Of a stretch of DNA of 64,000 nt, positions 8,463 through 46,849 are shown in pieces. The number at the start of each line of letters is the position of its first letter. Positions within the stretch are counted from its first letter, which is position 1. The translations under genes and the position numbers were made by a program. Under the pieces are notes generated by a model. That model worked only from the letters and a program-made list of their open reading frames with translations, did no database searches and was not told the DNA's origin. Source of the DNA: Octopus vulgaris (Eukaryota); NCBI GenBank assembly GCA_951406725.2, contig OX597819.1:134478001-134542000 (forward strand). The letters run 5' to 3'.

Positions 8463-9849
8463 CATATACATACACACCCATGTGGGTGTGTATGTCTAAA
8501 GCTGTACGACATAGAAAGTTTCAAATATAATTACAACAATTAGAAAATAACAATTAACGGCAATTTGCGAGCAAATAAAAGACAAAGTAAAGAGAAAATG
8601 TGCATATGTCTAATTCTATGAAGATTGTGTAAAATACTTAAAAAGCCGACCGGAATCTTCGACCGTTTCTTGGAATGAATTCTTCTCAACATTGCAGACG
8701 ACTGCCTCCCATAGAATCCACGCCTAAATTGCTGCGTATTCAGGGCAGAGTATTACTGCAGAGCGGGAAATAATCCCTATGACTTCCATGTATCGTTGTG
8801 TGGAAGCAAATATGGAAATGTTTCAAGTAAACAAACCTTTTTCTTGTTTTAGGATTTCGGGAATCGGTAAACATCCTCCATCGCCGTCTTTGGTTTCTAT
8901 TTACGTGACACTGCGCCGACCGCAGCGACACCTGGCCCAACACAGGGGGAGATAATTAGGTGAGGCTTTCATGGCTATTTAATTAGTGGACTGCGTTAAT
9001 TGCGTTGGGCTTCTAATGAAGAAACGGTAGATGAACAACCTCCAGGCAAAATAGAAATGATTTGATGTTCTTGCCAAAGAAAAGACATTCATTCATTTTA
9101 CATTCTAGTATATCAGTAATTCAGTGCAATTTTCCTGAGGTGTGTCCTAAGAAAACATTAACAGCTGTTTTTAATACAAATAAGTATCAGACTGTAGGAA
9201 TTTGGTATTTTGGTTATTGTGCACCAAAATATAATTATATATATCTTATTAGAATCATTTTTTCCCAAATTACATTACCTTTGATCATATATACATCATC
9301 GTTGTGCGGTATAAATTTTAGGAAAAAGGGAAACCACTTGGAAACTTTAAAATACGTTTATTTTTTAAAAGAAAACATTTAATTCAGTCTCATAAACTGG
9401 GTGATATCTCGCTTTAAAAGTTAAGCTTCAAAAACGTGTTCATAAGCAAAGATTTCTTGTTTTGCTGCATTCTAAAAGTTAATATATGGGAAATATCTAC
9501 GGATAAACACACACACACACACAGAGGGGGGGGGTTAATAAATATGAAATGTTTAAATATTAACTATTTAAATAAATGATGTTTACATATGGAATATTTG
9601 AGAATTGAAATAAACAGTTTTCGACCTGATAAAACCATAATTACCTCCCTTGCTATTCTTAATTTCTCTTCCTGGTTTTGAGTGGACTCTTTTCCTGAAT
9701 GCCTTCTCTCTGGGGTCGACAGCAATTCTTTTAATGTTACTATATTTTCCAGCCTCCCTTCGAATATGTTCTACAAGAATTCGATAATTAATGAATATGT
9801 TTTGTTTTGGTTTGTTATTCTTAAGGTTTTGCCTGAGTAAGAAAGACAC

Positions 9850-11560
9850 TATAGATGGGTAGGTTGTTGTTGAACCCCCTCCCCCTACTGTGACCCCCTC
9901 AGAAGTCTGTGATCTCGTTTGGTAGGAAAACGGAATTAAGAAAATACATGAAACAAGGTGGTGACTTTAAATGTCATCAATGTGGGCCACACGTATATAT
10001 ACACAAGCTGAATGAAAGTGGTTGATTAATATTCATTTATCTGCATGGGCTGTGTGTTAGCTGTTAACCCTGGTGAGGAAAGCTCACAAACAGCGATATG
10101 TTAGAACTAGTGCAGTGTGTTGGTGATGTGTAGATGTTGTTGACATGAGAGACATGATGGTGGCGATGACGATGGAGATCACTGCAATGTGGTTAATGGT
10201 TAGACTTTAGAAAGTCTAGAACCAACACACTCCAAGATTAGAAGGAGTTAACCAAGAAGATAGCTTTCAGGTGCAGCAAATGCACAGGGGCAATAGACAC
10301 CACACATGCTCAGAAAACAGATTCCATCACACTCCAGGGGAAGAATCTAGAAGTAGTTGATAGTTTCCACTACCTAGGTAACCAAGTTAGTAGTGTGGGT
10401 GGATGCTCAGAGAGTGTTACCACTAGAATAAGAATAGCCTGGGCAAAGTTCAGACAAATTCTACCCCTACTGGTGACAAAGGGCCTCTCACTCAGAGTGA
10501 AAGGTAGATTGTACGATGCATATGTGCGAACTGCCATACTTCACGGCAGTGAAACATGGGCCGTGACTGCAGAGGACATGCGTAGGCTCGAAAGAAATGA
10601 AGCTAGCATGATCTGCTGGATGTGTAATGTCAGTGTGCACATACGACAGAGTGTAAGTGTCCTGAGAGAAATGCTGGACATAAGAAGCATTGGATGTGAC
10701 GTGCAGGAGAGATGATTGCGCTGGTATGGTCATGTACTGCGGATGGATGAGGAGAGATGTGTGAAGAAGTGCCACTCCCAAACAGTTGAAGGCATCCAGG
10801 GGAGAGGTAGACCCAGGAATACATGGGATGAGGTGGTCAAGCAGGACCTTCAAACTTTGAGTCTCACAGAGGCAATGACGAAAGGCCGAGACCTCTGGAG
10901 ATATGCTGTAACTGCAAAGACCTGACAAATGAAGTGAGTTCACGGCTGTATCCTACACCAGTTTCGCATAACCAGCCCCAGCCCATTCAAAAGTACCTTG
11001 GATTGTAGAGCGACCTGCTGTGCTTGAGGAAACCTATTGAGTCAAGTACATCAAAATAAAAATAAAATGGAAACTGTAGCTGTCATACCCGTGCCAGTGT
11101 CACATAAAAAGCACCATCCGAATGTGGCCAATGCCAGCGCTGCCTTGACTGGCTTCCATGCCGGTGGCATGTAAAAAGCACTCACTACACTCACAGAGTG
11201 GTTGGCATTAGGAAGGGCGCCCAGCTGTAGAAACACTGCCAGACTGGAGCCTCGTGCAGCCTCCTGGTTTCCAAGACCCCAGTCGAACCATCCAACCCAT
11301 GCTAGCATGGAAAACAGACGTTAAATGATGATGATGAATGGTAGGCTCAAGTTTAAAAAAGACTGTCTCATGTGACTTATTTGGAGGCTGTGATTGGTTG
11401 GGTTGCATATTGGCATGTGATAGAGTAAGAGACAAATTGTGCCAATATCAACCAATCAGAGTGGTAGACAGAACAGGGTCTAAAACAGCACCCAAAGGTT
11501 AGCTGTTACCAGCTATGTTTGTAAGTATTTATACATAATAGAGAGAGGAAGTTCACTACA
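9850..11560 (-). repeat. 3' LTR interrupted by an RTE insertion
   Basis: 9850-10250 and 11337-11560 match consecutive parts of the 12803-13456 LTR. Confidence 0.85.
10251..11336 (+). mobile_element. 5'-truncated RTE LINE inserted in the LTR
   Basis: ORF pieces GGCSESVTTRIRIAWAKFR...LHGSETW...RWYGHVL...GRGRPRNTW, 3' UTR and (GAT)n tail. Confidence 0.92.
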
Positions 11561-12225
11561 GACAGCCCCCCTCCCCCCAGAAGTCATTTTGTGGGAGACA
11601 AAATAGACGATAAAACGAAGATATTTCTGTAGCAAAGAAGTAAAAAAGATTGCATAGCCAGCCATGATGGACCTACGTCCAGCTTATTGGAAATCACTGG
11701 AATGTGAAAAATCAAGGTAAATGAGAGAATATTGGCTGGTGTGAGAATGAGCAGGGCCAAGAATTTGCCTGCAAAACCATGAATCATTTGCAGAGGCAAA
11801 GGCTGTGGGTGCTAGAAAAGTGACAGTGACTAGCAAAGCGAGTCAAGCTATAAAAATGGTGACAAAAGAAAGACGTTCCAACTTGCAAGAGACTTGGTGT
11901 TGACCAGGTACCAAAGGAAGAAAATGCATGGAACTCTACAAGATGCAAAAAAATATACATTTATAAGAGGTGGTTCGTGCATCCTACAAACCAGAGAAGA
12001 AACACATAAAGAGCTTTTTGCCAGACGAGAAAAAGCTTGAGAAAAGTGTTCTGCTAGAATAAACCTAGAAAGGTGTTGGAGTGGATAGAATGAGGCAGAC
12101 AGCATGTATGTATAAGTGTATGTATGAATGCTGAGCAAATTTTTTTCTTAAATATGAACAAAATATTTAACAATCAAAACTGGAGCAATGTGAAAATTAC
12201 AATGCAAGTATACAAGGGGAAACCT

Positions 12226-12459
12226 TCAGCAAAGAAAGGGGTCCACAGAGAACAGTTTTGGTGTGCTTCTAAGAACGTGATAGGGTCCAGTGTAGGGAGG
12301 TGTGAGTGGTCCCTTGACAGCATCATTTCTTAGAAAGATGTGAGTCCAGGTAGAAATATCCGGAGGTACTGTAGAAGAAATAGATTGGTCATGAAGAAGC
12401 ATTGGTGGCAGGTCAGCAAAGAATGACCTGAGTTGTGTGACATAAGATGTGGGGTCCAC
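12226..12459 (-). pseudogene. Gypsy integrase C-terminal (GPY/F) remnant
   Basis: THIFLRNDAVKGPLTPPYTGPYHVL. Confidence 0.85.
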
Positions 12460-12497
12460 ATTTGGTAAGTTGATGGGCTTTTAGTGTGTGCTGTGTT

Positions 12498-12810
12498 GTG
12501 TTACCATTTTAGTTGGTTTAATGGTGTGGAACATCATGGTCATCATTTTACATGGATGGTGGTCTGGATCATCGTGGTGTGTTTTACACGTCGGGTCACC
12601 ATTATAGTTGGATAGTCAAGTTGATGTATTCCACGTCAGGATCATCATTGCAGATGTGTGTTCCATGCTACATCGGGGTTATCATTATAGAAAGATATGT
12701 TTTCCATGTCCGGGTTCACCATTATAGATGGTGTGGTGGTCTGGAACATCATGGGTCACCATTTTAGAAGGATAAGTGTCCATGTTGCGTCGGGGTCATC
12801 CTTATAGATG
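12498..12810 (-). repeat. Tandem array of ~8 degenerate LTR-end/PBS units
   Basis: Plus-strand variants of CGGGGTCACCATTATAG at ~12500, 12538, 12592, 12637, 12674, 12711, 12752 and 12791. Confidence 0.8.
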
Positions 12811-13456
12811 GGTATGTTGTTGTTGAGCCACCTAATATGACTCACTCAGAAGGGTGTAATCTCGTTTGGTAGAAAACCTGGATGAAGAAATACATGGAAC
12901 AAAGGTGATAACTTTAAATACGTTTATTGTGGCTACATGTATATATATACACAGGCTGAATTAAAGTGGTTGATGGACATTTATTCATATATCTACATGC
13001 ACCTGCATGGGCTGTATGTTAGCTGTTAACCCTGGTGAGGAAAGCTCACAAACAGCGATATGTTAGAACTAGTGCAATGTAGATATTGTTGACAACATTG
13101 GTGAGAGACATGATGGTGGTGATGAAGATAGAGATCACTACAATGTGGTCAGTGGTTGGACCTTAGAAAGTCTGGAACCAACAGACTTCGAGATTAAAAG
13201 GAGGTGAGTTTTTATAGCTAATGGTAGGCTCAAATGCTGTTTAGAAAAGACTGTCTCACGTGCCTTATTTGGAGGCTGTGATTGGTTGGGTTGCATATTA
13301 GCATGTGATAGAGTAAGAGATAAATTGTGCTAATACCAACCAATCAGAGTGATAGACAGAACAGGGTCTAAAACAGCATCCAAAGGTTAGCTGTTACCTG
13401 CTACGTTCATAAGTATTTATACATAATAGAGAGGAAGTTCACTAGAGTTCACTACA
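12803..13456 (-). repeat. 5' LTR
   Basis: On the minus strand starts TGTAGTGAAC and ends CCATCTATA; TATAAAA at ~13210-13216; aligns with the other LTR. Confidence 0.85.
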
Positions 13457-13739
13457 ACACTGCCCATGACCTTTTCCAAAGTCTTTGTCAGAGTTAGCTG
13501 ATAGGAATGAGAAACTATAACTCGTTACTATTCATCTGACATGCTTCTATGCAATTTCAGTCAACCAATTTCACTCACTAAAGTGCCATGTAGTGGAATT
13601 GATCTGGGAACCACATGACTACAAATCAAATTTCTTGACCACACAGCCATGTCCTTGCTTATAGCTAAAATAGTCTCAACTGTTTCCCCAAATTTTATCA
13701 ATTCTAAAGTTGTTGTTTTTTTTTAAAATCCAATTATGG

Positions 13740-45442: not shown

Positions 45443-45587
45443 GTAAATATCAGCAATCATTCCATTGTTCTGTCATCGTGATTTTTAAAGCTAATATTCA
45501 ATAAAAGTTTTATATTTCCTTCAAAGTAAATCATGAAAAGACAAAAAACTTGAATTTTTTTCTCTTTTTCTGCTTTCTTTACAACAG

Positions 45588-46849
45588 GCCGAAATGGAGA
45601 ATATGATCCTACAAAGGAAGAATCTGAAGATCTTGAACGTGCATTAGCAGCAGCTTATAAAGATATTCGGGATGCTAAAGAAAAGCTTGATAAATTGTCC
45701 AGAGTTGGTGATCAATCTTCCCAGTTGATGGATGTTAATGATGAAGAATGGACCAAACATATTGCAGATTCACTTTTGAATTCTGTCCAGCCTAATACAG
45801 TTCCTGTCACTGCCACTACTTTGACTACTGGGAATGGTCTAGCTTCAGAGCTTATGAAAGATAATTTGAATGTTCTTGATAGTTCTGATTTAACAGCTAA
45901 TTCTCTGCCTATGTCTGGTCAAGTGATCAACCAGCCAGTTGGTTCCATTACAACTGCTACATCAAATGGAGGAACTTCAGTTTTGCCATATGGTTGGATT
46001 AATTTCAACATGGCCTCAGTGCCATCATCCCTTTCAGATCAACCATTGTCAAATTGTAACAACCTCTTTATTAATAGTAAGCATCTACCACTAGCATCCA
46101 CTCAATCTATAGCTTCAGATTTGGCCTTAACATCTTCTCAACAACTTTCAACAAATGTTTCACACCTTTCCTCTTCAATATACAGGTCTGCTTCAAACAA
46201 TCGAACTGTTTTGACTACCACTTCTAAAGAAACAGCCATAGAAGGAAACACTTCACTTGGAGGCATGGCACCTCAGCAGGTTTCTGTTGAGCCAAAGCCT
46301 TTGTCTTCATCTGAATCTTCACTAGCAGCTGCAACATCACAACAAGCTAATTGCCAAGAAGCAACACGAACCATTTCTGCCCATGCTGCAGCAGTCACAT
46401 CAGCTCAAACTGGTTTGTCAGCTCATGTAAACATCAACACCCAAACCTCAACTCAGTTGACTACCACTAGTATTCAGATGCCATCTTCTCAAACTGCCAT
46501 TCTTCCAACATTATTGTCAATGCAAAGTGGCTCTATTCGGCCTGGAATCTGGTCCGCTGGTGGAGTGACTGCTGGAATCCCTATTCACTATTACAATGGC
46601 TTGCCTTCATCAGGAAGAATACCATTTGTTCAGAACATGGATTCTGGACCTCCGCCTGGCAGCTCTGCTAAATTTCAGTTAAATTCACACTTAGATTCAG
46701 GGGAATATAAACAAGATTTGACATTTACTTCATTACCACATTCCATGGGGACTTCCCATGGGGGAGCCCAAAGAACACGGACTGAAAAGAATCAAGGAGC
46801 AAAACCTGGCTCTATAACACAATTGAACTCATCTGGGGAAAATACATAG
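45588..46849 (+). CDS. INO80D: INO80D terminal coding exon (Ser/Thr-rich C-terminus)
   Basis: Strong polypyrimidine acceptor; GRNGEYDPTKEESEDLERALAAA resembles INO80D GKNGDLLPTTEEAEELERALQAV; open to TAG at 46847-46849. Confidence 0.88.

Follow-up and report, generated by a model that had tools for sequence, protein, structure and literature searches.

LTR retrotransposons are usually viewed as carrying one primer-binding site (PBS) and a fixed U5 end, and a locus in a 64-kb stretch of the Octopus vulgaris genome (64,000 nt, hereafter the window) raises the question of how heritable stacks of primer sites and movable LTR ends come about. On the minus strand, directly inside the 5′ LTR of one element, eight junctions run from position 12801 down to 12506, each consisting of an LTR-end pentamer, one further nucleotide and a sequence like the tRNA-Trp primer site. 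The primer sites start at 12801, 12761, 12721, 12684, 12647, 12601, 12545 and 12506, with junction-to-junction spacings of 40, 40, 37, 37, 46, 56 and 39 bp. All eight tRNA-Trp primer sites fused to an LTR terminus in the original prediction were thus located; of its spacing, 37–55 bp, the lower bound held while the upper did not, the measured range being 37–56 bp. The pentamer, CTATA, is the true LTR end, as given by the LTR boundaries and an ACAC TSD on both sides, which bears out the idea of multimerised U5-end/PBS junctions for tRNA-Trp. With the genome's own tRNA-Trp genes as reference (ARAGORN-confirmed in 3 of the 6 loci scanned), the units align to the 18-nt tRNA-Trp complement with scores of 9–14 and exact prefixes of 0–9 nt; none of the eight is perfect, and the best, at 12587–12601 as predicted, is one G short of the genome's own tRNA-Trp 3′ end. 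The array holds seven matches to the junction motif; 2000 doublet shuffles gave 0.056 on average and never more than 2, and elsewhere in the window there are at most two per 320 nt. The array is not an assembly artefact, because single contigs from four runs of four studies span all or nearly all of it with 1–6 differences; one of these runs may be the source sample.

The units all read on the minus strand. Unit 1 (12763–12801) combines a decayed PBS with a U5-like tail and is the site from which the window copy was most likely primed, since the 3′ LTR of that copy stops at the first junction. Unit 2 (12723–12761) has a 20-nt tail identical to the inner unit that ends the 3′ LTR of another copy, L157. 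It is followed by unit 3 (12686–12721), unit 4 (12649–12684) and unit 5 (12603–12647), the last with a decayed junction pentamer. Unit 6 (12547–12601), the top tRNA match (score 14/18), is fused to a headless unit and belongs to a type also found in L009 and L074. Unit 7 (12508–12545) is of an old shared type, X, present in many loci, and unit 8 (12479–12506), of the old shared type Y, is cut by a subfamily deletion and joined to an integrase remnant. A decayed protein repeat was rejected as the origin of the array, the reading frame not being continuous through it. A minisatellite of homogeneous head-to-tail units was also rejected: Tandem Repeats Finder, run on the window, did not call the array because its units are heterogeneous, and only one locus in the family, L188, has an array of that kind. 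ARAGORN found no tRNA in the whole window.

The element itself extends from 13456 to 9850 on the minus strand, between 4-bp ACAC TSDs (13457–13460 and 9846–9849). Its 5′ LTR (12803–13456, 654 bp) starts with TGTAG and terminates in CTATA. Beyond the array lies a C-terminal integrase remnant with a GPY motif (12241–12478, minus strand), which on its own matched no Pfam family; in relatives at 85% DNA identity the rve core lies just upstream. After a 3′ region, a polypurine tract (PPT; 11566–11578, minus strand) stands 5 nt ahead of the 3′ LTR, whose first part (11337–11560, minus strand; 14 mismatches to the 5′ LTR in 223 columns) is separated from the second (9850–10247, minus strand; 43 in 375) by about 1.1 kb of later insertions of dispersed repeats (10248–11336). 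The second part stops at the position of the first junction and has no inner units. Of 598 columns aligned between the two LTRs, 57 differ (9.5%), and gag, protease, RT, RNase H and the integrase core are missing from the window element, which is a dead, old and internally deleted CsRn1-type Ty3/gypsy copy. The junction of the array–integrase deletion is found again in L077, L080, L087 and L101, and a nearby junction in L081; the recurrence in four other loci indicates that a non-autonomous subfamily with this deletion replicated. A Penelope-like or hammerhead reading of the element was rejected, as there was no Rfam hammerhead match and TSD, PBS, PPT and integrase are present. A conserved LTR hairpin (13025–13066 and about 10065–10110) does look like a broken hammerhead core, again with no match in Rfam. 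The longest stop-free frame in the window, of 431 codons, lies at 45554–46849 on the plus strand.

Features that define the CsRn1 clade in the available text of PMC2582038 are found in the family. The PBS is complementary to tRNA-Trp, the TSD is of 4 bp (ACAC/ACAC in the window, 4/4 in many solo LTRs), the LTRs run from TGT to ATA or AAA, and GPY/F lies in the integrase C-terminus. The CHCC gag motif (CX2HX9CX3C) is present in L121, which has its LTR and integrase remnant in common with the window element, the window copy's own gag being deleted. The assignment is drawn from these LTR ends, TSD, Trp primer, GPY and CHCC motifs. The Ty3/gypsy domain order, RT–RNase H–integrase, is seen in relatives (RVT_1 then RT_RNaseH in L123; RT_RNaseH then Integrase_H2C2 and rve in L106) and not in the window.

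Is the array peculiar to this copy? Searches of the genome (2.8 Gb) gave more than 1000 candidate LTR copies, of which the best 40 were scored per search; motif and similarity searches together yielded 38 distinct clusters, a set biased towards arrays and window-like copies. Arrays are family-wide, mostly of 2–8 junctions with 13 at one locus, and unit order is common between loci; the array is therefore not unique to the window, and unit number varies in the family as had been suggested. The further suggestion, that a non-autonomous element had invented the array, fails: arrays occur in the deleted subfamily and also precede a normal leader and gag/pol pieces in L121 (with CHCC), L168, L169 and L173, which carry 3–8 junctions. 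In an array-blind sample, the 39 other best U3/R matches among the scored copies, 22 LTRs pass into flank at the first junction, six have one or two inner units before the flank, three are 5′ LTRs, all with arrays, and eight are truncated or unclear; the ends of L196, L203, L205 and L220 were assigned by eye. The family survey turned up no copy whose only junction was that of the leader. Among 18 integrase-bearing family loci examined with 7 kb upstream, an LTR/PBS border is left in three (L110, L121 and L123).

The arrays are also ordered. Across 107 clustered units (the 110 of the profile set described below, minus three), unit-type order was kept in 47 of 49 comparisons, with two conflicts between loci (16 pairs, each in at least two loci; shuffled mean 0.72, p = 0.0005, a value that, like the other p-values given here, overstates independence, units and loci having common ancestry). 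Leader-proximal unit types are widely common to loci. The tRNA match is better in the first unit than in the last in 18 of 21 arrays and worse in none, a freshness gradient inflated by last units cut by the subfamily deletion. Order and gradient are direct observations, and both bear on a rival account of the arrays, in which a 39-bp U5-end/PBS segment was tandemly and neutrally duplicated, whether by slippage during replication, by unequal exchange or by a template switch from one repeat to another, and the tRNA was not copied afresh. Such duplication would not give a conserved polarity with the old units distal, and it sits poorly with a window array that Tandem Repeats Finder missed. It does agree with the old sites being under no selection, and ordinary duplication also acts on arrays: L188 (G000:C17:11170372-11170860) has 13 near-identical 39-bp units, homogeneous and unlike other arrays, and the same unit type recurs inside single arrays, as in units 2 and 7 of the window and in L037.

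The units also have a tRNA-like extension, again observed directly. One unit, in L187, matches the mature tRNA-Trp complement, including CCA, at 47 of 50 nt, although this is the only read-through of such length, and the product that contains it is inverted and aberrant, with no clear TSD. It differs at position 19, opposite A58, and stops just before G26, which, like G37, we take to be modified in the tRNA-Trp of this genome. It then continues as a U5 end, joining at a segment termed here the U5 box, and its tail differs from the first U5 end of the same copy. A profile of 110 units from 35 loci, with L097 and L067 (no LTR context) and L153 (a homogeneous array) left out, gave an identity at position 19 of 0.18 versus 0.50 in shuffled tails, with gaps concentrated at positions 17–20. 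Matches at positions 21–26 averaged 4.18 versus 3.37 ± 0.10 for shuffled tails, part of which may be U5-derived, as U5 itself has a motif like tRNA complement 21–26. Neither a 47/50 match to mature tRNA with CCA, nor a dip at position 19, nor heterogeneous tails would result from duplication, and we regard it as an unlikely origin of the stack as a whole. For HIV-1 it is established that the plus strand can stop, or read through, where the tRNA is modified (PMC13191261, available excerpt); it stops mostly at m1A58 and to a minor extent at 55, 54 and 37 (PMC13191261; PMC8599865, likewise in excerpt).

The U5 box (12838–12865, minus strand) is complementary to the anticodon arm and variable loop of tRNA-Trp (complement 28–48). 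It was detected at p < 0.05 against shuffles in 30 of 31 U5 ends, 7 of the 38 clusters being left out of this test, and was absent from both of two other, single-PBS Trp-primed families. It provides homology on which a strand could realign, and is likely a landing site for an over-extended plus strand, or the relic of one; the box may have originated as an earlier copy of the tRNA, or it may be an extended contact with the primer of the kind described for HIV (PMC3185550, in excerpt). The tail of unit 1 is closer to the U5 end of its own copy than to those of others (22 loci, p = 0.0025), a likeness that would also be expected from kinship or slippage, and equally from the duplication of existing units.

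Taken together, the array is a family-wide ordered stack, likely built one unit at a time, that probably arose as a by-product of reverse transcription through plus-strand overrun and realignment; it is reshaped by ordinary duplication and loss. We infer the enzymatic steps and the tRNA modifications as follows. The plus strand, having copied U3-R-U5, would enter the primer tRNA and stall, misread or skip at modified bases. Its 3′ end could then realign on tRNA-like U5 sequence, on the same or a co-packaged minus strand, and recopy the last 15–30 nt of U5 together with the primer site, which would place a new unit of tRNA copy plus U5 end beside the 5′ LTR and leave the 3′ LTR unchanged. In later rounds, tRNA priming at an inner site would shift upstream units into both LTRs, out-of-register plus-strand transfer would remove or duplicate units, and old units would decay without selection. 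The family is old, and no young copy with the event in progress was seen. A stronger version can be put forward tentatively, as somewhat doubtful: the stack may be a polarised, CRISPR-like log, in which every unit records the host primer tRNA as reverse-transcribed, its modified bases marked by stops and errors, and is joined to the then-current LTR end; inner priming would move the LTR border, and the present U5 would be an older absorbed tRNA copy. If so, primer sequence would accrue at LTR ends and lengthen them, by a route that is general and also opens a path to primer switching.

Some further loci have related structures. In a different Trp-primed miniature LTR-like element (L252 / L264, G000:C2:174480740), a tRNA read-through piece (complement ~10–32) separates two LTR-end/PBS junctions; this is likely an independent case of the same event. 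L235, L237 and L240 are copies of the tRNA-Trp 3′ end including CCA; two of them reach complement 39 and so end immediately ahead of G37, one of these with a change opposite A58, and the third stops at 29.

Overrun and realignment would place new units on the 5′ side only, in which case 3′ LTRs ending at the first junction are expected. This is where the 3′ LTR stops in each of the seven two-LTR copies whose 3′ end could be read (window, L159, L166, L169, L182, L184 and L185). LTRs ending at inner junctions are also observed. The search for insertions ending at internal CTATA units was answered positively, one or two inner units being present in 6 of the 28 terminal LTRs of the U3/R-similarity sample. 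The inner end is flanked by a TSD of 4/4 in L158, 4/4 in L186 (TATA) and 3/4 in L162; L175, outside the 28-LTR sample, has four inner units and a TSD of 4/4, and L183 and L256 have no clear TSD. Where the U5 end of a cDNA falls depends on where its primer sits; these ends therefore point to priming at inner sites, and they are better read in this way than as the alternative integrase ends that had been proposed.

Solo LTRs could also be formed by recombination of an inner tail with the 3′ LTR end. The tails have 15–20 nt in common with the U5 end, the ends of L158 and L175 match their own U5 ends at 12/14 and 13/14, and none of the copies surveyed is a complete two-LTR element carrying inner units in both LTRs, all of which would suit such an exchange. 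In 6 of 28 cases, however, an exchange over 20 bp would have had to win over an LTR–LTR exchange across 650 bp. The inner ends of L162 and L186 agree with their own U5 ends at only 9/14 and 10/14, and L157 is a PPT-preceded 3′ LTR whose inner end equals the window unit-2 tail and matches its own U5 end at only 10/14. Recombination is thus an improbable source of the inner ends, and priming at inner sites is the preferred reading.

Whether the stack was kept because it is useful is a separate matter. Extra sites might compete for primer tRNA or RT, absorb 3′ tRNA fragments or serve as spare primer sites, and mouse ERVs are known to be silenced by 3′-tRFs that act at the PBS (PMC7472051, in excerpt). 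The three 5′ LTRs of the array-blind sample with arrays, the lack of any copy seen with the leader junction alone and the evident use of inner sites would all be compatible with selection. The conservation of the units argues the other way: in position-matched old units the PBS is the less conserved part, and it stays so when CpG sites are set aside, at 0.83–0.85 versus 0.90–0.94 for the remainder (position-matched sets replaced a first comparison by cluster, 0.76 vs 0.79, that was biased by clustering on the tail). The earlier adaptive ideas of primer or RT competition and of a tRF decoy do not survive this result. Moreover, the window sites keep exact prefixes of merely 0–9 nt, a younger Trp-primed family of the genome (23 of 30 loci clustered) shows no stack of this kind, the array RNA has no special structure (folding z = −0.2 relative to shuffles), and added target sites should presumably raise, not dilute, silencing in cis. 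No benefit, decoy or competition function is supported for the stack, and a selected origin appears quite unlikely, slightly more so than duplication.

In tandem TRIM and Cassandra arrays, whole LTRs plus the internal part are repeated. The octopus arrays resemble them in their repeated LTR/PBS borders, but the window element is not a tandem-array TRIM: its units, of 30–80 bp, have the U5 end only, and an integrase remnant is kept. Members of the CsRn1 clade (CsRn1, PwRn1 and AgCR1-14) have the same tRNA-Trp PBS, 4-bp TSD, LTR ends, CHCC motif (here in a relative) and GPY motif; as described in the available text, they have one short PBS, whereas the octopus family has 2–8 ordered junctions, some units copy tRNA well past the PBS, and LTRs end at inner junctions (PMC2582038). 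HIV-1 primer-site mutants gained several PBS over cycles of reverse transcription in passage (PMC1084362, in excerpt). These were culture revertants with different tRNAs; the octopus stack, in contrast, occurs naturally, is inherited across the whole family and has a polarity, and every one of its units includes a U5 end. The 23-nt insertion downstream of the PBS in HIV-1 MAL is likewise a partial PBS duplication, but a single one in which, by the available account, the LTR end is not repeated (PMC3185550). The primer over-extension sequence of HIV-1 also reflects a plus strand that overruns m1A58, but by a few nucleotides only (PMC13191261, in excerpt). In cqgypsy_1 of Culex, mature tRNA with CCA lies at the LTR/PBS border, flanked by a 26-nt LTR-end duplication; the excerpted report describes one element with a head-to-head dimer of two other tRNAs, not an iterated primer array, and its authors favoured an integrase-type insertion (PMC3286476). 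Helenus/TRIMp3 has tRNA-derived sequence inside its LTR, proposed to be pol III promoters from a SINE insertion (PMC10886601, in excerpt). The window element is not of this type, as its piece is of about 21 nt, antisense and from the primer tRNA.

Multiple PBS therefore have precedents, in HIV-1 passage mutants, the MAL insertion and cqgypsy_1, as far as the excerpted sources describe them, while a natural, ordered, family-wide stack is not described in the literature searched. That search for PBS arrays in retrotransposons found none, its coverage stopping short of Repbase and of most older virology or subscription titles. Plus-strand overrun into the primer tRNA has so far been documented chiefly by HIV-1 biochemistry and by passage mutants, and the stack would preserve a record of it that is both natural and ordered. 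The stack also suggests ways in which tRNA sequence gets into LTRs and primer sites come to be replaced, a matter called mechanistically unknown in the available text of PMC10886601. For annotation, the calling of LTR boundaries is affected. The importance is limited by the age and inactivity of the element, and by the benefit not found.

Several minor observations concern other tRNA-Trp-related sequences of the genome. The younger Trp-primed family (L225-L251) has a single PBS matching 20 nt, two past A58, like the primer over-extension sequence, and the last 30 nt of its U5 are hypervariable among otherwise similar copies. Inverted, head-to-head LTR or PBS layouts at L265 / L187, L170 and L191 are probably aberrant products of reverse transcription. 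Finally, 16 matches to the tRNA-Trp 3′-end pattern lie within 83 kb at G000:C6:58378997-58461520, and the two of these loci that were checked contain tRNA-Trp genes.
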